Shown here: one piece after another, positions 1 through 10,980 of the stretch | How positions within the stretch are numbered: the stretch's first letter is position 1 | Layout: each line of letters opens with the position of its first letter | IMG/VR virus record: IMGVR_UViG_2737471845_000021 | Source: a virus | Taxonomy: Duplodnaviria; Heunggongvirae; Uroviricota; Caudoviricetes | DNA length: 13,193 nucleotides | Reading direction: 5' to 3' (one strand) | Program-made: the position numbers and the translations under genes | The notes under the pieces: generated by a model | What the model was told of the DNA's origin: nothing | Database searches by the model: none | The model's input: the letters and a program-made list of their open reading frames with translations, nothing else

Positions 1-379
1 TGAGCTGTGCTTCTTCATCCGGACCAATGCCATCCTGGTCTGCAATATCCAGACACAGGCACAGCACATCAACCGCTTCAGCGGTTCCTGCCACATCAGC
101 CAGTTCACGCAAAGCCTGAGCATTCGCACTACGAGGCGACGCTTCATAACGGGCGCGGATATTTGCACTAATTTGTGCAATCTCACCGGAGAACGGCGCA
201 AAAGCAGGAAGTGCTGCAATGGTTTTCTCCAGTACCGCGATTTCTTTCGCGTCGCAGGTACCGTCAGCATATGCAATGGAGTATGCGCCCCAGATGGTCG
301 CTTCCACTGCGTCGCGGTTCTACATCTTCTTCACTTCAGTAATGGCCTTGCGGGTTTTCTTTTTGAAAATACCTAACAT
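1..379 (-). pseudogene. TerB-like (tellurite-resistance / DjlA-N-like) domain protein, 5' part only; in-frame amber codon at codon 20 (320..322); 3' end beyond window start
   Basis: ATG at 379..377 with AAAGGA 10 nt upstream. The frame reads MLGIFKKKTRKAITEVKKM, then TAG, then stays open to position 1 (more than 100 codons) with two D-G-x-x-D/E-x-E-x-x-L repeats. Family assignment is weak (motif recall only). Confidence 0.4.
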
Positions 380-546
380 CGTGACTTGTCCTTTTAGTGG
401 GTGAGCCTCGCCCCGGGATGAGCAGCCCACAGAGAAAGTCACACCGACAATCCCGTAAGCTCCCCCTGAAGGGCTCTGTGATTTTTGATGTGCGCCGGCT
501 TGGAGCGAAATGAAAAGCCCCTCAACAGCAGCCTAAGACTATGAAT

Positions 547-573
547 AAAAAAATACCCGTCCGGAGACGGGCT
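547..573 (-). terminator. Rho-independent terminator (minus strand)
   Basis: Minus-strand hairpin CCCGTC-UCCG-GACGGG (plus 556..571) followed by UAUUUUUUU (plus A-run 547..553). Lies downstream of the tRNA genes on the same strand. Confidence 0.6.
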
Positions 574-844
574 AACGCATTCATCATGTAAGAGTGGAAC
601 AGCGATTATTGTAAGTATGGCCGCTGCCAGAATGAGTCGTCAGCCTGCAACGCAATTCTGGCAAATCACAGGCACCAAAACAGGCAACGACTCATTCTGG
701 TAACAACTTTTTCCAATAACGCAACTTCATGAGAAAAAAACAGCACTGTATCCGCTATTGCAGAATGAAGAACAATAAAAACCTGAACTATTATTCAACG
801 CGGAAAACCGCCAGTGCTGCAAACGCCGTCAGAAATAAAACAAT

Positions 845-880
845 GAAGTTGCGGAGAACAGGAATCGAACCGGCATTACC
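845..880 (-). other. tRNA-like 3' fragment (degenerate tRNA-Arg(CCU)-like T-arm); not a complete tRNA
   Basis: Minus strand reads ...CCTTAGG..GCCGGTTCGATTCCTGTTCTCCGCA, which resembles the 3' half of an argW-type tRNA (GGTTCGATTCC T-loop). The T-stem has mismatches and no complementary 5' acceptor strand is present upstream. Confidence 0.3.
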
Positions 881-1437
881 AACCTAAGGCTGATGTAATA
901 ATCACTATACGATACCTGCATATAGAGCAGGCCTCCGTAACCACAATAATGACACTGATACTGATAACAGCCCTTCATTATGATTAAACGGATGCCAGCA
1001 ATGACCCGCTAGACAGCGGATAACACCCTGTGAACAGAAACTTGCTGCCTTTCGGATCGGGATTAATATTACCGATAATTTATATGACATCAAAAACTAA
1101 TTAGTTTTCATATTTAAACATATGTATAAATATGTATCAGGCGCATACAATTTATGTTATTTCATCCAGACTTCTGATTTCTCACAGGACATTGCGTAAA
1201 AACCAATATGAATATGATCCATTTGGGAATACGCTAATTACGTTGTTGCGACAAATAACAGGAAACACTCAGGAAATAACAGATTGCAAGACTTACATCA
1301 GCAGTAGTTTTTGTAACTTTTAACGTTAATTGTATCGTTTATAGAAAAGCTATGATGCCATATGGTGAACTAACAGAACTTAACGAATAACCCAATGACT
1401 CCGGGCTAATAACGCTGCCAGCTAAACTTGCATGGAA

Positions 1438-1514
1438 TGGTCCGCCACCGAGGACTCGAACCTCGCACAATCAACTTAGAAGGTTGATGCTCTATCCTGA
1501 TGAGCTAGTGGCGG
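1438..1514 (-). tRNA. tRNA-Arg (anticodon UCU)
   Basis: Minus-strand 77-nt sequence folds as a cloverleaf by hand: acceptor CCGCCAC/GTGGCGG, D-stem GCTC/GAGC, anticodon stem TCAAC/GTTGA with loop CTTCTAA (anticodon TCT), T-arm CGAGG-TTCGAGT-CCTCG, discriminator A, CCA encoded. Confidence 0.85.
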
Positions 1515-1516
1515 AA

Positions 1517-1592
1517 TGGTGGCCCTTGCTGGATTTGAACCAGCGACCTGGCGATTATGAGTCGCTCGCTCTAACCACTGAGCTAAAGGGCC
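1517..1592 (-). tRNA. tRNA-Ile2 (anticodon CAU, lysidine type; formally could be Met)
   Basis: Minus-strand 76-nt cloverleaf GGCCCTTTAGCTCAGTGGTTAGAGCGAGCGACTCATAATCGCCAGGTCGCTGGTTCAAATCCAGCAAGGGCCACCA. Anticodon loop is CTCATAA. Overall sequence is close to E. coli ileX/ileY-type tRNA rather than elongator tRNA-Met. Separated from tRNA-Arg by 2 nt. Confidence 0.8.
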
Positions 1593-1601
1593 ACATGTGA
1601 A

Positions 1602-1631
1602 ATATTAATTATTGAAAACCAGCCCCTGCAA
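1602..1631 (-). promoter_or_regulatory. Candidate sigma70 promoter for the tRNA pair
   Basis: Minus strand TTGCAG (plus 1626..1631), 18-nt spacer, TAATAT (plus 1602..1607), ending about 9 nt upstream of the tRNA-Ile 5' end. Confidence 0.35.
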
Positions 1632-2589
1632 AATTTATTCACTTATAAAAAAGGCTCAACAGTATTACCAGTGAGCCAAAGTAAAGGAATAAAACGATGA
1701 AAAGGCCAATAGACAGCATAGTAACTACACCATCAGGATAAGGCATGAATATCTGTAATTATAACATCAGCATTGCACAGAGTTTATAACTGATATCATG
1801 CCCTATCCTGATGAGGCATAAAAACACAGAAAATATCCTTTCTTATCTATATCATTCCCTACCCAGCCACTTTTTCCACAAAGAGAAACATTGAGTGTGG
1901 CACTCTGTTGTACATCATAACATTACATCCGGAAATTAACACGTCCTTCAACAGAATGCCACACTCAATATTGCCATGATATTAAGCTCCAACAAAAAAA
2001 AATAAAATGCACCGAATCCGTAACACGAAATCACAAATTGAAGAGAAACTCCCCCCCACGCAAACAAGCGCCGATGCTATACAATTTAACAGTATACAAA
2101 TCCATTAAAAGATAGAACGGGATAATGCATTGCAAGATAAAAGATGCAAAACTTTCCATTAACTCACACTACAAACACCACCGACACCCCCAACAGCGAG
2201 CTGCCTGTGGTGGAATTAAATATCACTTAAATAAGCAAGAAGCACAACCACAATCATGTAAAATTTTATTAAAAACCTTAACACAAAAAACATTTAATGA
2301 GTGGTAATGTTAGATATTTATCACTAGCTTATCAGCAATATTAGGTGAAAACACAAAAATCTTAGCTTTATGTGCACACCAACATATCAATAACTCTTGA
2401 GACTTATATGCCCAAACGGATAACAATTAACTGTATAAAAACCGCTTAAAGAATGTCTTGAAGGAATGCAGATCAATCACTCTTATCACAATACCAAAAA
2501 ATTTACGTACGTAAATCTTTCTCTATATGTTTTTTAATATATCCCGGCACTAACTCTCGGTTACTCAGAGCAAGGAAAGTTAACTAAAA

Positions 2590-3408
2590 TCAATGGTGTT
2601 TTAATAACGGATAAGTAAAAAACAACAAATGGCAAAGATTTAAACCAAAATGAAAAAGGGTGGATACCCACACCCGACCACTCCACAACCACGCCAAACC
2701 ATAAATAAAACCAGCAAGCGTAGAAAAGAGAACCAGTAATAAACCACCAGATAAATGATAAAGACCAAAAAGACATGAAGATATAAACAATGCAGTTAAT
2801 GGATGTATAATAAATGACAGACGCTGCTGAAGATATCCTCTAAAAAAAGCCTCTTCAGCAAGTGAAACAAAAAATAGGTTACTCAATATAAATTGAGGTA
2901 ACCAATCAGGAAAATGCAACTCTGGTTTCAACCCACCAACAAAAACACCTGACATTAAAAGTAAAGGAACAGAGAGTAAAAGCATACCCCAAAAACTGTA
3001 AGGCACATTTCGTCTGCCCCCATCGTTGAATAAAGAAGGAAATCCAAGCAATAACAAAAATGGTATTAGTGCCTTGTCAAAATTAAAATACATAATGTAT
3101 GGAGTACTCAGTGGGCCTGCAACTACAGAATTTAAAATCAATGGATTATGAAACCCAGGCCAAATGTGAATAAGCAATCCTGCAGATGACAGAACAAAAC
3201 CAATCTCAATGATTATTCTACACAAATACTTATGTGGCCATTTTATTTTCAATAAAAAACACACACTTACTGTTATGAGAAGAAAAATCGCCTGCCACTT
3301 AATCACACCATTGAGCCCCCCCAAAACAATAGCAATTAACAACAATAATGAAGACAACAACCTATACGAACTTAAGCTAACCAATGACAGAGCCAGAATA
3401 CCCCACAT
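2590..3408 (-). CDS. CPBP family intramembrane metalloprotease (CAAX protease / Abi domain), polytopic membrane protein; cargo gene in AT-rich island
   Basis: 272-aa ORF, ATG at 3408 with AAGGAGG 5 nt upstream. Hydrophobic N-terminal half. All three CPBP motifs in order: EEAFFRGY (EExxxR), FGLYH (FxxxH), HFGLN (HxxxN). Local GC content is much lower than the flanking phage genes. Confidence 0.85.
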   Translation of the reverse strand: MWGILALSLVSLSSYRLLSSLLLLIAIVLGGLNGVIKWQAIFLLITVSVCFLLKIKWPHKYLCRIIIEIGFVLSSAGLLIHIWPGFHNPLILNSVVAGPLSTPYIMYFNFDKALIPFLLLLGFPSLFNDGGRRNVPYSFWGMLLLSVPLLLMSGVFVGGLKPELHFPDWLPQFILSNLFFVSLAEEAFFRGYLQQRLSFIIHPLTALFISSCLFGLYHLSGGLLLVLFSTLAGFIYGLAWLWSGRVWVSTLFHFGLNLCHLLFFTYPLLKHH

Positions 3409-3451
3409 TCGTTCCTCCTTAATTATAATAATACAATATAACCATCATAAC

Positions 3452-3490
3452 GTTCTTTTATTATACAAACATCACAATATTCAATGTCAA
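3452..3490 (-). promoter_or_regulatory. Near-consensus sigma70 promoter immediately downstream of Q (candidate late promoter PR')
   Basis: Minus strand TTGACA (plus 3485..3490), 19-nt spacer, TATAAT (plus 3460..3465) preceded by TG. Begins about 40 nt after the Q stop. Its transcript would enter the CPBP gene about 45 nt downstream with no intervening terminator seen. Confidence 0.5.
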
Positions 3491-3530
3491 TACAAACATA
3501 TACATTTAACATCTTCATGATGTGCATAAA

Positions 3531-3899
3531 CTAATAGACATCCATTTCTAATGAAACGTTTAGTATCATTAGCATTCCTTCAATAACCCCTTCAGCCTTC
3601 TTAAGTTTTTTACCAATATAACCATCAGAACAACCATGTTTTTTTGCCAGAGACATAAATGTCATACCCAAAACGTAATAATCCACGAGCAGATCATGCA
3701 AGTCACTGTTGTTCTTTTTCAAGCGAGCCATACACCCACAAATGATCATCGCGTCATCGTCACAACATTGCGGGCGGGATTTTACTTTTGAATGGATTAG
3801 TCCTTTAAATCCTGCAGCAATAGACGACCAGGTGACATCCTCATGATTATTTGCCACCCATGCACCCCAACGTTCAAGAACCATTTGAATATCACGCAT
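3531..3899 (-). CDS. Phage antitermination protein Q (phage-82 / QuuD-like family)
   Basis: ATG at 3899 preceded by GGAGAAAGG; the track ORF begins 5 codons earlier at a TTG. N-terminus [14 protein letters not shown] and a Cys-rich [16 protein letters not shown] region resemble DLP12 QuuD-type Q proteins. Position is last gene before the late promoter. Confidence 0.75.
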
Positions 3900-3916
3900 C
3901 ACCTTTCTCCACAAAA

Positions 3917-4906
3917 TCAGGCCAGCACACCAATTGCCAGCGCGCGATCGATAAAACGAAATATCAGCTCCAGTTGGGAGCCATACTTCTCTTCAAATGC
4001 CACGGTATCCATATGCAGCTCGTCGTGATGCTTTCTGCACAAAGGCAACACAAAGAGGTCATGCGCTTTAGTCCCCATTCCCCCCTGACCGTGGCCTATA
4101 AGATGGTGGGGATCATCAGCAGGCTTTCCACAACATGCACACGGCTGTGTCTTAACCCAGCGCGTGTACTTTTCGTGAACCCAGCGGCGACGTTTTGGGC
4201 GTAACATAAAAGACTCTGGCGACTCCGGATGCACTTTCAGCGTCAGCACCTTTTTCGCTTTATCCTGGATGATGCTGGTGGCAGGAACCGAAGGCACAAG
4301 GTCACTTTCCCGGGTGGCAGACGGCACAACAGGCTTCGGTAATCTCAGTACCATACGGGCTGCACTTTCAGGTAAGGCATCCGCCAGGTCATTACGAACC
4401 AGCCACCAGCACAGTTCCGGCATTGTCACAACGTGACTATCATCAAAACCGAGATCCCGACGCACAACAGACAACACCCAGCGGGCACAGTTATCCGTTG
4501 CCATTGATTCCAGCCGTTCCGTGAACTGATCGCGCAGCTGGTTATCGCAGTGCCAGCACAGACGGATTGCGCCAGGCGCGTGTCGCATTGTGGTCATGTT
4601 CTCGCTGTGCCAGTCGGAATGAGGCCACTGGCAGCCTTTTTCACGAAGTAACCAGCTTTCAAGACATTCCACGCCACCAGCACGACGGATCACTGCCACA
4701 TTGCGGAACACGGCTCGAACGGCAGGATCATCCGCCAGCGGTTGTGATGCCGCCGGAACGGCACCACTGGCAAAAGATGAATAACGTTCCGGCTCAGGCT
4801 CCAGCAGGACACGCCCCTGCATAAACAGGGGCATCAGCTCTGAACCTGGTCTGAACAATACGATCCCCATACGTGGGGCAATTTCAGGGGTCAGTAGTGC
4901 TCTCAA
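3917..4906 (-). CDS. DUF968 (YdfU-like) prophage protein with C-terminal HNH-like Cys/His motif
   Basis: 329-codon ORF. C-terminus [43 protein letters not shown]. First codon is TTG with GAGG 7 nt upstream; an alternative ATG lies at 4870, so the start is uncertain. Confidence 0.6.
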
Positions 4907-4915
4907 CGTAGAACC

Positions 4916-5431
4916 TCACAGCGCAATCTGTTTCAGTTTCTGTACCGCCTTCCCCATATCCGCCATAGCATCAACAAACTCATCAAATTTACGACTTGCC
5001 ATTCCATACGCCTGGAGGATTTCCAGTTTCAGAGGATCCAGTTGCTTTTTAATTTCCGCACGATCATTAAATTTCTTCTCTGCTTCTTCCGCAGCCCTGA
5101 TCAGCTCCTCAGCGTGCCTGCGTAATTCATCCGGAGTAACGGTCTTTTTAATCACAACGGGTTCCTCTGTTTTTACTGGTATTTCACTATTTACTACCTG
5201 ATGTCCAAATTTAGGATGATGTAACGTTGTAGTTCTTCCATCATTCGCAACGACCAGAAGTCCACTGTCGCGGATAATGCCAATGAGTATCTCCTTATCC
5301 CTTTTATTCAGCAGACTGTACGCCTGCACTTTCTGTGATATCTGGGTCAGTGTTGCGCCTTCCGGCATTCGTTCAACAAAACGTTTAACCCTGGATAAAA
5401 CTGGCTGCAGATGAGGTGGTGTAATTCTCAT
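4916..5431 (-). CDS. Hypothetical phage protein (possible winged-helix N-terminus, Lys/Glu-rich helical C-terminus)
   Basis: ATG at 5431 with GGAGG 8 nt upstream (track ORF starts at an upstream TTG). 171 aa, tightly packed between KilA-N and DUF968. No family recognised. Confidence 0.5.
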   Translation of the reverse strand: MRITPPHLQPVLSRVKRFVERMPEGATLTQISQKVQAYSLLNKRDKEILIGIIRDSGLLVVANDGRTTTLHHPKFGHQVVNSEIPVKTEEPVVIKKTVTPDELRRHAEELIRAAEEAEKKFNDRAEIKKQLDPLKLEILQAYGMASRKFDEFVDAMADMGKAVQKLKQIAL

Positions 5432-5446
5432 GCTCCACGCCTCCAA

Positions 5447-6262
5447 TCAGTGAACAGTATCGAGCAGCTTTAACAGCTCAGGGAATCGGGATTCGAAGAA
5501 ATGCGGCTGCGTCTCGCGCGGATTTGCAGGACTGGTGATGTTCTTGCCGAACATGCAGCCTTTCGCCGTCAACGACCAGAATTTTTTTATGTTGTTAATC
5601 GCGGTACGGCTGTATCGTTCGCGTTGTTCAACGATCCCCAGCTTCGCCATCTGGTGATATGCCTGATTAGCCGTCAGGCGGATGCCATACTGCTTCAGCA
5701 GTGCACTCAGCGACAGCGTAGGGCGGCTTGAACCATCTGGAGCATCAGCAGGTGCATCAATGGCATAGATCGGCATAAGTTCAGGAAGCCCAGCTACCTT
5801 TGATAATTTCTTGTATGCACCAAGTTTCGAGGAGTTTGACAGATTTAGAGTCTTTGCTGCTGATTCAAGCAGAATGACCCCGGATTTAATTTTATCGGAT
5901 GTGGTTTCTTCTGGTGATGAATTATGAAGCGCATCAAAAGTACGTATCACTTTTAAGCTGAATGCCGGGCTGATCCACATTGCATATGCATAGACCAGCT
6001 CTTTACAGACATACGTCCCACCATTGCGCCCCTGAATGGTGATGACAGGAATACTACGGGAATCTCCCGTAGTTTCTTCTTCCAGTAATTCCACAAGAGC
6101 CTTCGTTTCAGGACGACGCATAAACTCGTGAACTTCCAGCGAACGGGAGGAGCGATTCTCACCAGCGGCAAGAAGAGCAGCTTTCTGAAGGTCGTTAAGA
6201 CAGTAGTTAGATTCAAAGTACTGGCGCACAGAAACGCCATCAATTACAAGCAACTGATTCAT
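5447..6262 (-). CDS. KilA-N domain protein (putative antirepressor)
   Basis: ATG at 6262 with GGAGAAA 4 nt upstream (track ORF extends 32 codons further). Region MNQLLVIDGVSVRQYF...ITIQGRNGGTYVCKELVYAYAMWISPAFSLKVIRTFDAL matches KilA-N domain features. A LexA box lies upstream. Confidence 0.7.
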   Translation of the reverse strand: MNQLLVIDGVSVRQYFESNYCLNDLQKAALLAAGENRSSRSLEVHEFMRRPETKALVELLEEETTGDSRSIPVITIQGRNGGTYVCKELVYAYAMWISPAFSLKVIRTFDALHNSSPEETTSDKIKSGVILLESAAKTLNLSNSSKLGAYKKLSKVAGLPELMPIYAIDAPADAPDGSSRPTLSLSALLKQYGIRLTANQAYHQMAKLGIVEQRERYSRTAINNIKKFWSLTAKGCMFGKNITSPANPRETQPHFFESRFPELLKLLDTVH

Positions 6263-6348
6263 TGGTTTCTCCACAAATTTCGGGACTGCACTCCCTTTTC
6301 GTTGATGCAAGATGAACTTACTGCGATTTTTAATAGTTATCAAGGATA

Positions 6349-6368
6349 TACTGTTCATAAATACAGTA
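6349..6368. promoter_or_regulatory. LexA (SOS) box upstream of the KilA-N gene
   Basis: TACTGTTCATAAATACAGTA: exact CTGT-N8-ACAG with AT-rich spacer and flanking TA/TA, in the 151-bp gap between rusA and the KilA-N gene. A candidate promoter lies immediately downstream on the minus strand (-35 TTGATA at 6338..6343, -10 TAAGTT at 6315..6320). Confidence 0.6.
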
Positions 6369-6413
6369 TCCTTAACGAGGTAATACCCAAATTTAGGGTG
6401 TTGCTCAATTCCG

Positions 6414-6809
6414 TTACCGGGTTGCTAATTTGCAACTCACTTTTTCGTACTTACTGATTGTGATCTCGACCTTCCCTTCCGGGATAACCGGTCCCCACTC
6501 CACCAACATTCTTTTCACCTGGCTGTCGTCTTCCCACACACCCGCGTGGGTCAGGGCGTCAAACAGCGCCTTGTTATAGTTGTCCAGATCGCGGATCCGG
6601 TTATCTGGAGGAAACAACACGATCTCCACTGAAGCAGGTGCCGACGTTGGTTTTGGCAGACGACGTAACTGCTCAACTATTGCTGCACACGCCGCGCTCT
6701 GGAATTTGCGCCCCGTTGCGCTTATCAGGCTCTTACCAGCAAACACCCCTTTGTTGGGGTGTCGCCAGTACGTGTTCACGCTGGGCGGAAAAGGCAGTAT
6801 TAGCTTCAT
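6414..6809 (-). CDS. rusA: RusA-family Holliday junction resolvase
   Basis: 131 aa with the RusA motifs LPFPPSVNTYWRH and RDLDNYNKALFDALTHAGVWEDDSQV. Start ATG overlaps the upstream stop (ATGA). Confidence 0.85.
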   Translation of the reverse strand: MKLILPFPPSVNTYWRHPNKGVFAGKSLISATGRKFQSAACAAIVEQLRRLPKPTSAPASVEIVLFPPDNRIRDLDNYNKALFDALTHAGVWEDDSQVKRMLVEWGPVIPEGKVEITISKYEKVSCKLATR

Positions 6810-7132
6810 ACTTTCAGGCCCCTCTCATGTAACCAGTGGGCTGCACGCAGCCTGGCGTTTGCCTCACCGGCAAGCAGTGCGCGGATAATCCCGACCGCCT
6901 CGCTGTCGTCGTCCTTCACCGCCGTATGAAGAGTGATACCCCGGGCCACGCCACGCTTTATCGTGATGACGCCTTTTTTCTCCAGTGCGCGAAGATGCTC
7001 CACCGCTGCATTCACCGAACGGTATCCCAGCATGGTTGCCACCTCCTGATTGGTTGGAGGAAAGCCACGCTCTTTCTGATAAGAAATCAGCATATCCAGC
7101 ACCTGCTGCTGGCATTGAGTTAACGTCATCAT
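6806..7132 (-). CDS. LexA-like DNA-binding domain protein without the S24 peptidase domain
   Basis: ATG at 7132 overlaps the upstream TAA (TAATG). About 108 aa. LTQCQQQVLDMLISYQKERGFPPTNQEVATMLGYRSVNAAVEHLRALEKKGVITIKRGVARGITL aligns motif-for-motif with the LexA N-terminal winged-helix domain. No Ala-Gly cleavage site or GDSM serine region follows. Confidence 0.65.
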   Translation of the reverse strand: MMTLTQCQQQVLDMLISYQKERGFPPTNQEVATMLGYRSVNAAVEHLRALEKKGVITIKRGVARGITLHTAVKDDDSEAVGIIRALLAGEANARLRAAHWLHERGLKV

Positions 7133-7620
7133 TACGCCCCCACGTAATTCCCTGACAGATACCACTCTTCACCCGATGCAGCGCGCTTGCTGCTTTTCCG
7201 TAAGCACCGCTCACGACGCGCCAGAAAATTGTTTCGTTCTGGCTGGGAGTGGCTTTCACGGAATGCCGCCATCCACACGGTTGCAGCACGACGGTATAAG
7301 CCCCTCGACTCCAGTTCTTCAGCCTGGCGGGTCAGGCACAAAATCACCCGGGGATCGTTAGTGCCGACATAGAAATTGCGCACAGGTCTGGTTTCACGAA
7401 CTGGTTGTGGTTCCGGCTCCTGCGCTCTCTCAGTCAGGCGCGGGAAATGTCTGCGTGTATCTCCTTCACAACGGTGAGCCACACGCCCACTCTGACGTAA
7501 CTTGCTTGCTGACTGCAGAACGCGCTGCCGTGAGTAACCTGCAAAAGCCTCCGCAATGTCTCCGGAAGTACAGCCCGGATGGGCTTCAATGAATTTCTGA
7601 ACGTCATTCAAAAGACTCAT
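7132..7620 (-). CDS. PerC-family-like transcriptional regulator
   Basis: ATG at 7620, 2 nt after the upstream stop, preceded by a G-run. C-terminal segment LESRGLYRRAATVWMAAF resembles the PerC/Pch signature (GLWRRAAxxW). Family call is from motif recall only. Confidence 0.45.
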   Translation of the reverse strand: MSLLNDVQKFIEAHPGCTSGDIAEAFAGYSRQRVLQSASKLRQSGRVAHRCEGDTRRHFPRLTERAQEPEPQPVRETRPVRNFYVGTNDPRVILCLTRQAEELESRGLYRRAATVWMAAFRESHSQPERNNFLARRERCLRKSSKRAASGEEWYLSGNYVGA

Positions 7621-7622
7621 GA

Positions 7623-8441
7623 TCACCCCCTGAATCCTGCCGGGATCTGGCTGTAGTCCACATTGTCGTAACTGGCTTTGAAGTACGGGTCCTCGCGTCT
7701 GGCTGCAGATACCGCAGGAACTTCCCAGGATTCTTCGAAATGACGATCCGGACCAAAGAACGTGACAGCCTGTTTCACAAATTGTGTGCCGCTGTTACCC
7801 ATCGCAGATACCCAGCCCGCGTAGCGTTTCACACCTTCCAGCATGGTTTCGGGGTTTACCCCCTCATTCAAACGGGCTTTCCAGGCTTTGAAGGCTGCAG
7901 ATTTTGAATTGCCACCAGCACGTTTGGGATATGCCAGCCATGCCTGCTCAAACTCCGGAGAGTATTCCGGTCGGTTTGAACGAACTCGCACGGACTCATC
8001 AACTGATGCACCAACAGCTATTGGTTCATTGACTGGTTCATTGACTGGTTCAAAAGAGTGACTGGTTCTGGGTGAATCTCCTGCACTACCCCCTGGTGCA
8101 ACTCCTGCACTACCTGGTGAATTTGCTGCACCAGATAGTGAATTATTTGCACTACCCCCTGGTGAATCTCCTGCACCATCCAGATGAAGGAGATAGATAT
8201 TACTTGAGTTACCTTTTTCACCTTTCCGGGTGACTTTTTTTACCAGCCCGGACTCACAAAGGGCCGCAATATGATTCATCACAGAACGTTTGCTAATCTC
8301 GCACTGGTCAGCAATATGCTGGTAGCTGGGCCAGCACTCACCCTGATCGCTGGCATTATCAGCCAGCTTGATCAGAACCAGTTTTCGCAATGGATTACCC
8401 ACTCGAATTTTCATCGCTTTAACCATCAGCTCCATACTCAT
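7623..8441 (-). CDS. Replication initiator / replisome organiser (lambda O-like; N-terminal HTH, C-terminal Phg_2220_C-like domain)
   Basis: ATG at 8441 with GGAGGTG 6 nt upstream. Internal low-complexity repeats (PVNEPVNEP, GDSPGG) are encoded by the iteron array. C-terminal FEQAWLAYPKRAGGNSKSAAFKAWKARL resembles the conserved phage C-terminus of replisome organisers. Confidence 0.7.
   Translation of the reverse strand: MSMELMVKAMKIRVGNPLRKLVLIKLADNASDQGECWPSYQHIADQCEISKRSVMNHIAALCESGLVKKVTRKGEKGNSSNIYLLHLDGAGDSPGGSANNSLSGAANSPGSAGVAPGGSAGDSPRTSHSFEPVNEPVNEPIAVGASVDESVRVRSNRPEYSPEFEQAWLAYPKRAGGNSKSAAFKAWKARLNEGVNPETMLEGVKRYAGWVSAMGNSGTQFVKQAVTFFGPDRHFEESWEVPAVSAARREDPYFKASYDNVDYSQIPAGFRG
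8010..8180. repeat. Iteron-like direct repeats inside the initiator gene (candidate replication origin)
   Basis: ttcattgactgg occurs twice in tandem (8013..8036); cctggtgaatctcctgcac and ctcctgcactacc recur several times over 8058..8175. Arrangement is analogous to lambda ori inside gene O. Confidence 0.55.
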
Positions 8442-8658: not shown

Positions 8659-9204
8659 TCATTTGCCCCCCCTTACCTCTGAAGGGTTCAGTGACAGATT
8701 TATGAGACTGGCCAGTACCGCCGCGTCGTTGATGCGGTCATACAGACTTATAGCCAGCGGGGATTCGGCTTTTGCCAACATGGGATAAAGCTGCTGCAGC
8801 CAGACTTTGTGGATTACCGACAAGTGGGAGTAAAGCACGCTGGCGTTATGTGCGGCATCGCTCAGCGTGGATGGCCTTGAAAGCTGCTTTTCCATCTGGT
8901 TAAAGGCATTGATGTATGCCTCTTTGAACTGGGCAGCACGTTTCCCCGTGAAACCCATAGCAAGAAACGCAAAGCCGTCGCGGGTTATTTGATAGCAAGG
9001 TAGTTTGCGGCCTGTGCAATCGGTGTAATCACTCACCGAAAAATTGCGGGCAGTGAATGATGCGGAACATTCAAGCGTGCGGATCTTTTTCAGTACATCG
9101 TCATGACGTTTGGAGAAGAAGTTGGCAACAGCTAGGGATGAAGTAACAGCCTGACCATCAACGATGGCAATTTCAGGTTGAGTGAGGGTTGGGATCGTAG
9201 CCAT
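8659..9204 (-). CDS. Rha-family phage regulatory protein
   Basis: ATG at 9204 with AGAGG upstream. MATIPTLTQPEIAIVDGQAVTSSLAVANFFSKRHDDVLKKIRTL...ITRDGFAFLAMGFTGKRAAQFKEAYINAFNQME matches the Rha N-terminal domain. The track ORF continues 133 codons upstream through the repeat module; that extension is judged non-coding. Confidence 0.7.
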   Translation of the reverse strand: MATIPTLTQPEIAIVDGQAVTSSLAVANFFSKRHDDVLKKIRTLECSASFTARNFSVSDYTDCTGRKLPCYQITRDGFAFLAMGFTGKRAAQFKEAYINAFNQMEKQLSRPSTLSDAAHNASVLYSHLSVIHKVWLQQLYPMLAKAESPLAISLYDRINDAAVLASLINLSLNPSEVRGGK

Positions 9205-9474
9205 GATGGCAGCCTCTTTGGTGATTTTTAATAACTCACCACCAAGGCTTTCCACGACCTTATTGGTGGTGAGACGTACAGGGGTGGAAATACCGGTCAC
9301 CAAAGAACCCGGCCCAACCGAAGTTGGCCCTGCACGCCCCACCATAATTTGGGCGTAATGCTGCTCATGACACAAAAAAACCGCAAGAGCGCGGTTGTGC
9401 GCTTTGGTGAATTCCGGGTTTCCACGCCCGGCACCCGCTTTATAAGGTGCCTGAACAGTGTAACCTCCCGGAAT
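9184..9474. repeat. Leader module D, copy 1 (about 290 bp), upstream of and overlapping the rha start
   Basis: Homologous to 9809..10096 with conserved blocks: cccaccataatttggg, cccgctttataaggtgcctgaacagtgtaac, gtagccatgatggcagcctc. Hairpins differ in sequence between copies but still pair. Confidence 0.75.
9374..9396 (-). terminator. Intrinsic terminator inside leader module copy 1
   Basis: Minus strand AACCGC-GCUCUU-GCGGUU followed by UUUUU. A predicted promoter lies about 75 nt upstream on the same strand (-35 TTGACC at plus 9480..9485, -10 TACACT at plus 9457..9462). Confidence 0.5.
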
Positions 9475-9534
9475 TTCACGGTCAACCAAGCTAACACGTA
9501 GAACATGCCCTGCAGGTGTGGTGTACCACTGCCC
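9475..9534. repeat. Core repeat, copy 1 (60 bp)
   Basis: Near-identical to 8546..8606. Confidence 0.8.
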
Positions 9535-9595
9535 AACTGTAGGAATTGATGTTTTTTTACGCTGAAGAAAACGGCAAATATTGAGGATCAACGGA

Positions 9596-9829
9596 TTAAG
9601 CATGACGATGCCCTCCGCTGATATTCAGGAGACGGTGAATATGAAAATTAGCCTTATCCGCCAGACGAATACGTTCAGCCTGCAAGTTAAGAAGGGTTTC
9701 TACCAGAACTTCATGCGCCTGCGGATCCGAAAGAGTTACCTTGCGCAGAGCACGTAGTGCAGTTGTTACATAACTGAGTTTATGTAAGTCTTCATCATTC
9801 AGACGAGAGAGGGCTGGGACAGTAGCCAT
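9596..9829 (-). CDS. Hypothetical 77-aa protein; first 8 codons homologous to the rha start
   Basis: ATG at 9829 in the same conserved context as the rha start (gtagccatgatggcagcctc). N-terminus MATVPAL compares with Rha MATIPTL. Function unknown. The track ORF extends 201 codons upstream through leader module copy 2. Confidence 0.4.
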   Translation of the reverse strand: MATVPALSRLNDEDLHKLSYVTTALRALRKVTLSDPQAHEVLVETLLNLQAERIRLADKANFHIHRLLNISGGHRHA

Positions 9830-10096
9830 GATGGCAGCCTCCGTATGCAATGGATAACTTCCACCACCGGAAACGCCAATTTCGCTGGTGGTGAACTGAG
9901 CAGGGTTGGCGTAACCGGCGCATACGGAAACCGGCGCACCTTTCGGTGCCCCCACCCAGCCCACCATAATTTGGGTATAGCTGAGTTGTAGCAACAAAAA
10001 AGACGCTAACGCGCCAATTGTCGCCGTATGCAATTCCAGGACGCCAATCCCGACACCCGCTTTATAAGGTGCCTGAACAGTGTAACGTCCCGGAAT
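9809..10096. repeat. Leader module D, copy 2
   Basis: See copy 1. Lacks the 60-bp core but has its own promoter-like element (-35 TTGATT at plus 10102..10107, 17-nt spacer, -10 TACACT at plus 10079..10084). Confidence 0.75.
9996..10015 (-). terminator. Intrinsic terminator inside leader module copy 2
   Basis: Minus strand GGCGC-GUUA-GCGUC followed by UUUUUU. Different stem sequence from copy 1 at the equivalent position, but still a hairpin plus U-tract. Confidence 0.45.
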
Positions 10097-10428
10097 GGCA
10101 GAATCAATGTGCTGGTGGTCCTTCACACTCAACAAAATCACGCCTGAATTTCCACAAAGGACTAAAGCACTCATGCGGGTAGTCTTTGCGAAGATAGATA
10201 ACGCGCTGTGTTTCTGGCTCCCAACGAATAACATGAACATAAAGTCCTCTTCCGTCACGAAACCAGCGGTTAAGTTCCTGCACAACTCGCCCCCCACAGT
10301 CAGGTAAAGTTCTCTGTGGTTACTTACAGCCAGGTGATTTGGTAATCTGCATTCATGCCGTAACAACAGGTGTTCAGCGACGCTGACCACCAACTGTTGC
10401 GACAAACGGTTATTTGCCGTTAAACTGT

Positions 10429-10980
10429 TCATGCGTTAGTTTCTCCACGGACACAAAACGCCACGACGCCCGGAGCTGCACACTCGCGGGCGTCACTCTT
10501 TTCTGGAGCGCAGAAAATTTTGTAGACCAGCGCCGCATGTTCCTGGAGCTTCGAAATCGACAGATACAACTCATCATTAATTGCTGTCTGTTCATGTGGC
10601 TCCACTAGCCCATCTTCGATTGCCGAACGAATCTGCTTTGAGTAACTCCCGATCTGTTCAATGACTTCCAGTAGACGTTGGTTGATATCAGCGTTCTCTA
10701 CTTCCTCAATTTCAGGAAGTGATACAAACACCCCACCAGCAGACTGTGCGACAGCATCCGCAATGTGATGAGTACTAGCCGCACGCTGTAAAACCATTGC
10801 CCATCCCAACGGAAAAAACTGATCACCATCGGCACGAAGGCGGTTGAATAAAGCGTTCTCTGTTACATCCAGCCACTCAGCAGCTTCAGCGTAACCACCT
10901 GGCAATGCCGCGATAGTTTTTCTGACAGCTTTCACATACCAGTCAGGTTGTTTTTCCACTTTCCAGTGATGCTTACCCAC
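10429..10980 (-). CDS. CII-like / YdaT-family early regulatory protein
   Basis: GTG start with AGGAGG 7 nt upstream. 183 aa. Sits immediately downstream of the Cro/YdaS-like gene, as ydaT follows ydaS in Rac-type prophages. Family call rests on position and recall, not a search. Confidence 0.55.
   Translation of the reverse strand: MGKHHWKVEKQPDWYVKAVRKTIAALPGGYAEAAEWLDVTENALFNRLRADGDQFFPLGWAMVLQRAASTHHIADAVAQSAGGVFVSLPEIEEVENADINQRLLEVIEQIGSYSKQIRSAIEDGLVEPHEQTAINDELYLSISKLQEHAALVYKIFCAPEKSDARECAAPGVVAFCVRGETNA

Follow-up and report, generated by a model that had tools for sequence, protein, structure and literature searches.

The late promoter pR' is constitutive in lysogens, and its transcript ends at the terminator tR' (PMC7547250). 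The Shiga toxin genes (stx), ArtAB and the anti-small RNAs (anti-sRNAs), the last of which cluster at the late-promoter moron site (PMC4104026), lie 3' of pR', and their expression is therefore coupled to the antiterminator Q. The nmpC/lc porin gene of DLP12-type phages (mEp332), and also of Kati, is cargo between Q and the pR' unit. In prophages of enterohaemorrhagic Escherichia coli (EHEC), a gene for a CPBP intramembrane protease (WP_000265265.1 in O157:H7 FRIK2455; WP_021499255.1 in OkiPb01678) is found after a Q gene of the PF06530 family (122-123 amino acids, aa) and 75-100 nt before a pR'/tR' unit. Here, we describe a diverged CPBP gene at the same place in the virus record IMGVR_UViG_2737471845_000021 (Caudoviricetes). 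The window, that is, the whole stretch of 13,193 nucleotides that was analysed, is part of an E. coli/Shigella lambdoid prophage with its genes on the minus strand.

The window CPBP gene shares with its EHEC counterparts the length of 272 aa, the active-site motifs and the AT-richness, at 57-66% protein identity and ~70-74% DNA identity. Unlike in the EHEC prophages, the pR' unit of the window has lost its terminator, and the 0.9 kb behind it are unique. From the comparison of homologous loci, we conclude that CPBP appears to precede pR', occupying the Q-pR' gap and not the slot used by stx, because the pR' unit lies after the CPBP stop codon in five of five lineages. The reading that we favour, with a confidence that falls well short of certainty, is that CPBP is probably a self-contained moron with its own promoter in the Q-pR' gap, and that the orphan AT-rich stretch behind it is a separate leader of the late operon. 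The features to which this reading refers are the following.

3531..3914, minus strand: antiterminator Q gene of the Q21/933W family (PF06530, E = 1.1e-52)
3460..3490, minus strand: sigma-70-type promoter, probably of CPBP (TTGACA at 3490-3485, 19-nt spacer, TATAAT at 3465-3460)
3414..3420, minus strand: Shine-Dalgarno sequence AAGGAGG, 5 nt before the CPBP ATG, read from the sequence
2590..3408, minus strand: gene for the CPBP (Rce1-like, 'Abi') intramembrane glutamic protease, 272 aa (PF02517, motifs and structural model)
2469..2515, minus strand: homologue of the pR' unit (-35 TTTACG at 2515-2510, 16-nt spacer, -10 TATTGT at 2493-2488, leader GATAAGAGTGATTGATCTG)
2436..2468, minus strand: decayed proximal terminator tR' (3' arm and U-run AAGCGGTTTTTAT remain, 5' arm lost)

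The probable start of Q is the ATG at 3899, as chosen by the gene callers, which gives a protein of 122 aa. This protein matches the Q21 structures 6P18/6JNX (E = 3e-7), and the Q21/933W family has been defined previously (bioRxiv 651190).

The placement of pR' was based on an alignment of mEp332, Kati and three E. coli prophages (L002, L091 and L100; handles of this form denote fetched loci), whose Q genes are 83-88% identical. In all of them, the strand that encodes Q carries a conserved block in the interval from Q to the late genes, with the consensus TTTACG(T/A)(A/T)CGTAAA... (TTTACGTACGTAAA), a spacer, TAT(G/A/T)(C/A/T)T, GTTAAGAGTGGTTAC..., a GC-rich hairpin and a T-run. In L100, this block comes immediately after Q, whereas the nmpC porin gene intervenes in mEp332 and Kati, and a small reverse-strand gene in L002. 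The position of nmpC therefore resembles that of CPBP, with the difference that nmpC lies on the strand opposite to Q and CPBP is co-directional with Q. From comparative position and architecture, we infer that the TTTACG block is a pR'/short-leader/tR' unit. The StxS or lambda 6S-type pR'-tR' transcript likewise combines a constitutive late promoter with a terminator, and the unit of the relatives spans ~50-60 nt.

Five CPBP lineages were compared (the window, L001/L092, L094/L095, L096/L097, and L110 from O157:H7 FRIK2455), and in each of them the block lies 75-100 nt after the CPBP stop codon; the unit of the window begins 75 nt downstream of it. In the Stx1 phage L094, Q is followed by CPBP, then by the pR' block and then by stx1A-stx1B. 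L094 and L095 are two contigs of E. coli GCA_012267765.1, and the region (4479-7833) encodes a Q of 123 aa, an StxA of 315 aa and an StxB of 89 aa. These comparisons revise the preliminary description of this DNA, which had taken a promoter at 3452..3490 as the late promoter and had assigned CPBP to the position of the stx toxin genes: the conserved pR' unit lies downstream of CPBP instead, and in L094 the toxin genes follow the pR'/tR' unit.

A position weight matrix (PWM) for the 20 nt after the -10 element, built from seven family leaders, gave the window pR' unit a score of 11.2, the second best of the whole 13-kb window. The proximal terminator was not retained to the same extent. The relatives keep tR' as CCCGCC...GCGGG followed by a T-run, with the hairpin intact in L002, L091, L096, L099 and L110, whereas in the window no hairpin was found in the fold before the tR' U-run (z = -0.2), and no intrinsic terminator lies within ~60 nt of the start site.

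In L100 (E. coli 20Ec-P-124; 974-2317), an ArtAB-like toxin pair, comprising a subtilase-family B subunit and a scabin-related ADP-ribosyltransferase, was found directly after the pR'-like unit, which apparently is without the usual terminator hairpin.

The CPBP gene is the sole long open reading frame (ORF) in its region. The preliminary description had recognised it as a CPBP protease, which is borne out by the PF02517 profile (69.4 bits against a cutoff of 22.4, E = 3.2e-19). In an alignment of the window protein with 24 homologues at 48-66% identity, which includes three of the four lineages used for the substitution analysis below, the residues of EExxxR (E185, E186 and R190) and those of FxxxH and HxxxN (F214, H218, H253 and N257) were invariant in all 25 sequences. 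The mutation of these motifs in close homologues, named beforehand as evidence against the assignment, was thus not observed. The AlphaFold model computed on the same alignment is confident (predicted local distance difference test, pLDDT, 90.9) and polytopic with ten predicted helices, and its fold matches the solved CPBP structures SpdC and Rce1. The product therefore looks catalytically competent, as judged from its intact active-site motifs.

The sequence identity of the window protein to Staphylococcus aureus SpdC/LyrA (PDB 6U0O) and Methanococcus Rce1 (PDB 4CAD) is 12-17%, and a phmmer search against the PDB gave no match. In comparison with SpdC and Rce1, its N-terminal half contains the family-specific motifs PGFHN and MYFNFDKA, and no counterpart of the substrates and partners of SpdC and Rce1 was identified. 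The protein matches, over its full length, a PHROG without assigned function (phrog_13291); this match presumably derives from prophages.

The protein identities to the window are 66% for L001/L092, 60% for L094/L095 and 57% for L096/L097 (E. albertii/E. coli). The genes of four prophage lineages have exactly 272 codons each and a guanine-plus-cytosine (GC) content of 36-37.5%. The ratio of nonsynonymous to synonymous substitution rates (dN/dS), calculated for four of the five lineages, was 0.12-0.30, with dS of at least 1, and hence saturated, for most pairs. Because the 272 codons and the motifs are kept and dN/dS is low, the CPBP gene is real and under purifying selection. In addition, Q and CPBP have co-diverged to saturated dS across the lineages, indicating that the linkage between them is old. 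The acquisition from a separate source that had been read from the drop in GC content was thus only partly right: the cargo is AT-rich and stands directly after Q, as described, whereas its linkage to Q is not recent.

The GC fraction of CPBP is 0.36, that of the orphan stretch 0.35 and that of the Q-CPBP spacer 0.25, whereas the remainder of the window has 0.49. The drop in GC content is thus real, but the low-GC tract spans ~3750 to ~900. It is not confined to the island, because it reaches ~900 and takes in DNA that is shared, at 88-89% identity, with other E. coli prophages of the enterotoxigenic (ETEC) type.

Among 5426 complete E. coli genomes, neither the window CPBP allele nor the island as a whole was found, whereas a CPBP homologue was present in 574 (blastn, ~70% identity over the 3' 570 nt). 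Nearly every one of the matches listed for these genomes is annotated as a CPBP family intramembrane glutamic endopeptidase, and the strains include O157:H7, O145, O111:H8 and O55:H7. The exact window protein occurs on 65 contigs of E. coli and Shigella flexneri draft genomes, in records already named 'CPBP family intramembrane metalloprotease/glutamic endopeptidase'. These results indicate that the window allele is a rare, diverged variant of a common and already annotated cargo gene of EHEC prophages. A tblastn search of 50,697 deposited phage genomes gave no match, and the open-access literature on CPBP or CAAX proteins in connection with prophages, Q, Shiga toxin or phage exclusion yielded no paper on these genes. 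Outside prophages, ~50%-identical chromosomal homologues are found in Yersinia, Pantoea, Erwinia, Hafnia, Providencia, Dickeya, Serratia and others. These are solitary and their contexts unrelated, and no conserved neighbour that would hint at a substrate was found in the contexts compared: the Hafnia homologue lies between the ABC-ATPase gene of a molybdate-transport cluster and the gal operon, and the neighbours of the Pantoea and Salmonella-island homologues are different again.

Both hexamers of the promoter at 3460-3490 are perfect, and the spacer, as read from the sequence, is 19 nt. A consensus scan with spacers of 16-18 nt did not call it, because 19 nt is outside this range. The near-consensus promoter noted previously after Q was therefore found, with the qualifications that its spacer is long and that it is probably CPBP's own and not the late promoter. 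The ribosome-binding site is of consensus strength, as had been stated. Promoter-like hexamers precede CPBP in five of five lineages: in L001, L094, L096 and L110, a TTGnCn/(T/G)ATAAn promoter lies 30-50 nt before the ATG, with the hexamers TTGCAT-18-TATAAA, TTGCCA-17-GATAAT, TTGTCA-17-GATAAT and TTGCCT-17-GATAAT. No terminator was found between Q and CPBP in the terminator scan. The palindrome TTGTACC-N5-GGTACAA, which resembles a repressor (CI) operator and belongs to the immunity region, is not repeated near either promoter (3400-3530 and 2470-2520), and repressor control of the CPBP promoter was rejected on this basis.

Given its own promoter, the lack of a terminator after Q and the lack of an operator copy, expression of CPBP is expected, as far as the sequence can tell, both in the lysogen and by early read-through. 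In the lysogen, CPBP would be transcribed from its own promoter, without a repressor operator, and during lytic growth by read-through of the early-right operon through Q; its expression would in either case be independent of Q-mediated antitermination. CPBP should differ in this respect from stx, ArtAB and the anti-sRNAs, whose place downstream of pR' couples them to Q. The product is a polytopic inner-membrane glutamic protease, which would most likely cleave or bind a membrane-embedded peptide or protein in the envelope of the lysogen. By analogy with Abi immunity proteins and with SpdC, its role could, speculatively, be protective (immunity or exclusion) or a lysogenic conversion that modifies the envelope.

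A 14-nt sequence, TGATGGTTATATTG, is present twice on the minus strand, at 3627-3614 in the Q coding region (SDGYIG codons) and at 3447-3434 in the CPBP leader; this repeat may be due to chance or be a trace of recombination.

Several points weigh against the favoured reading. The identification of pR' draws on comparative position and architecture, and the literature search gave no paper showing the sequence of a pR' unit. The window copy is the most diverged, with a -10 element of TATTGT, a weaker leader match and no terminator, and for these reasons the unit could be inactive in the window. The 19-nt spacer of the CPBP promoter is suboptimal, and the surrounding DNA is very AT-rich; very AT-rich DNA in E. 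coli is often silenced by H-NS. The link to a known defence or immunity system that the preliminary description had drawn was not recovered: no PADLOC defence model matched CPBP (0 families at E<=1); the CPBP flanks, where Q and pR' are the neighbours, contain no ORF or family resembling a bacteriocin, unlike the operon setting of self-immunity 'Abi' proteins of the PlnI/SkkI type; and the chromosomal homologues are solitary genes in varied contexts.

The DNA between the pR' unit and the tRNA genes contains the following features, to which the terminator before the lysis genes is added.

1593..2435, minus strand: lineage-specific AT-rich non-coding stretch from pR' to the tRNA genes, with no homologue and no called gene
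1887..1972, minus strand: hairpin 1, with a 24-bp stem and a 38-nt loop (inverted repeat I1, 92% complementary)
1728..1815, minus strand: hairpin 2, with arms similar to the D-arm region of the neighbouring tRNA-Arg (repeats I4, I2 and D4)
1647..1677, minus strand: canonical intrinsic terminator, GGCTCA...TGAGCC followed by T6 (fold and sequence)
549..572, minus strand: second strong intrinsic terminator (terminator scan; fold z = -3.4), before the TerB-like gene and the lysis genes

The 5' end of the tRNA (1592/1593) marks the exact point at which homology to other prophages is lost, to be regained at the pR' block. The orphan stretch in between gave no blastn match in 5426 E. coli genomes and 50,697 phage records, and no match in translated comparison to the fetched loci (flanks of CPBP homologues, an ETEC prophage and an O157 prophage). 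It is absent from every other CPBP lineage, and at its position other prophages carry DNA methyltransferase or TrmB/HTH genes. A six-frame Pfam scan of the stretch gave one sub-threshold chance match and nothing else, and the possibility that it is a decayed gene was rejected, as neither a Pfam nor a translated match was obtained. At the level of RNA, no Rfam family reached threshold, with only sub-threshold microRNA-type chance matches on the hairpins. A mobile repeat was likewise rejected: an exact-word scan of IMG/VR with both hairpin arms returned only this phage itself (L107, 99.99% identical) and two contigs that are unrelated and have no tRNAs.

The gene callers, applied to eight assemblies, called nothing in the orphan stretch, in agreement with the earlier statement that 1620-2590 contains no convincing ORF. 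The largest candidates in 1620-2590 are a 60-aa ORF on the plus strand and short T-rich hydrophobic ORFs, and the small ORFs of the stretch have no Pfam or NCBIfam match. The suggestion that a partner of CPBP is encoded here was thus not supported: because the stretch is absent from every other CPBP lineage, it is not a CPBP partner, and it lies on the far side of pR' and shows no coding or RNA-family signal. A search for conserved small ORFs or RNA in the corresponding 1 kb of homologous prophages, as had been proposed, found no homologue of the stretch and no family for its small ORFs. The orphan stretch is, as judged from its position, a leader of the late operon outside the CPBP cassette. 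In sum, the preliminary description rightly recognised CPBP, its regulatory placement was wrong, and its partner hypothesis is unsupported.

Both hairpins are stable. Hairpin 1 folds at -41.8 kcal/mol (z = -5.1; 0 of 200 shuffles as low), and hairpin 2 at -43 kcal/mol (z = -5.2), with an extended -10-like sequence, TGTTATAAT, in its loop. The terminator at 1677-1647 is the first intact one downstream of pR'. It is located shortly before the tRNA genes, and a hydrophobic ORF of 35 aa (1639-1746) overlaps it with its end. The orphan stretch takes the place of the genes found in other prophages from pR' to the ileZ/argN-type tRNAs. Since the proximal terminator has decayed in the window lineage, a pR' transcript of ~0.8 kb is predicted, in contrast to that of StxS: constitutive transcripts from pR' would run through the two hairpins to the terminator at 1677-1647. 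Together with the one at 572-549, this terminator would prevent expression of the lysis genes until Q acts.

The alternative that survives best, although we consider it unlikely, is that the orphan stretch encodes a product of its own, either a StxS-like RNA from the 3' end of the pR' transcript or a type I toxin-like hydrophobic peptide, the latter being ORF 1639-1746 or its internal 26-aa form, with a ribosome-binding site buried in hairpin 2. The two hairpins with z values of about -5 would be consistent with either version, as would the position of the canonical terminator at the end of the ORF and that of TGTTATAAT just upstream of it. Moreover, short pR' transcripts can be Hfq-dependent regulators (PMC7547250), and the clustering of anti-sRNAs at the late-promoter moron site provides a precedent (PMC4104026). 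However, a test of conservation or covariation is impossible for a stretch with no homologue anywhere searched, no RNA family reached threshold, and, by the measure of type I toxin-antitoxin systems and small membrane peptides, ORF 1639-1746 has no peptide family and no homologous locus. A T-rich strand yields hydrophobic ORFs by chance. In addition, among the eight fetched copies of the locus, whose identity to the window over 1-4000 is 99.7% or higher, five variable sites fall within 1957-2459, numbers being small and 2459 lying just outside the stretch, whereas no variants were found in Q or CPBP.

A second alternative returns to the promoter at 3460-3490 and takes it as pR', so that CPBP would be the first late gene, expressed constitutively or, on induction, at a high level, like stx. 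This promoter has perfect hexamers and stands directly after Q, as pR' does in lambda and L100, and the downstream pR'-like unit is degenerate in the window lineage. Its leader carries a direct repeat (GTTATGAT/GTTATATT) and three -10-like hexamers, which superficially resemble the two-subsite Q-binding element and the sigma-dependent pause element of Q21. This resemblance was rejected as chance (GTTATGATGGTTATATTG and the three hexamers): against the post -10 leader of the family, the best site in the Q-CPBP spacer has a PWM score of 3.1, which is equalled by 25% of shuffles. In the four other CPBP lineages, moreover, the leader before CPBP is short and plain and the pR'/tR' unit after the gene is intact, and the 19-nt spacer also speaks against a late promoter at 3460-3490. 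We regard this alternative as quite improbable.

A similarly low probability is given to a bolder form of the favoured reading, in which Q-CPBP-pR' would be a conserved EHEC-type module that supplies an active, Q-independent protease as an exclusion, immunity or envelope factor, or in which the loss of tR' in the window lineage would have made the constitutive late promoter the source of a structured RNA of ~0.8 kb, with a StxS-like regulator or the mRNA of a type I toxin-like peptide as its 3' end. The weakest alternative, that CPBP rides along with the Q module, neutral or in decay, without benefit to the lysogen, could appeal to its lack of a known partner, of a defence-model match and of literature that we could find, and to its AT-rich, silencing-prone surroundings, but is highly unlikely in view of the 272 codons kept in four of four compared lineages, the three motifs intact in every aligned sequence, a dN/dS of 0.12-0.30 despite saturated dS, the retention of a homologue in 574 of 5426 complete genomes and the absence of variants among the eight copies of the window allele.

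For the rest of the window, the order on the minus strand is a DUF968/HNH gene, Q, a 122-nt spacer, CPBP, ~1 kb without a called gene, a tRNA with a CAT anticodon and tRNA-Arg(TCT). Downstream of the tRNAs follow another ~1 kb, a TerB-like ORF, two holins and a GH108 endolysin. The early region is ~95% identical to that of Stx2c phages. The two tRNA genes are as follows.

1517-1592, minus strand: tRNA with a CAT anticodon, ileZ-like (ARAGORN, Rfam and annotation of homologous loci)
1438-1514, minus strand: tRNA-Arg(TCT) (ARAGORN, Rfam and annotation of homologous loci)

The former is called tRNA-Met(CAT) by ARAGORN, and its E. coli prophage homologues are named tRNA-Ile by the Prokaryotic Genome Annotation Pipeline (PGAP); we take it to be of the lysidine-modified ileZ type known from Stx phages. 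A tRNA-like sequence at 850-919 on the minus strand scored 28.7 bits against an Rfam threshold of 29, without an ARAGORN call, and may be the decayed third tRNA of an ileZ-argN-argO-type cluster. The spacer from the tRNAs to the TerB-like gene contains a perfect inverted repeat of 14 nt at 627-640/687-700 (CCAGAATGAGTCGT / ACGACTCATTCTGG) with a 46-nt loop, and parts of 537-1239 are ~76% identical to plasmid DNA next to an IS200/IS605 tnpA gene.

The TerB-like ORF upstream of the holins (1-378, minus strand) has an in-frame TAG after 19 codons (the stop at ~341-339), whereas the copies L087, L089 and L090 carry G for A at this codon (TGG) and have an intact 141-aa ORF. At 9262-10072 on the minus strand, a tandem pair of C4 antisense RNAs was found (83.6 and 80.7 bits), each with an isrK-like RNA as its partner (67 and 58.9 bits), inside two adjoining Phage_ASH/pRha-type ORFs (8659-9603 and 9596-10432). 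This region looks like a duplicated c4-ant/isrK immunity module of the P1/P7 or Gifsy type.

Overall, CPBP homologues are carried by ~10% of complete E. coli genomes, beside the switch for Shiga toxin and lysis. The most useful result is the conserved order of Q, CPBP and pR', beyond which the window's own allele adds little. Because CPBP lies upstream of pR', the predicted timing of its expression shifts from late to the lysogen and the early period after induction, apart from the late genes. This prediction points to phenotypes of the lysogen, namely phage exclusion, resistance to colicins, microcins or peptides, and envelope changes, as those in which CPBP would act.

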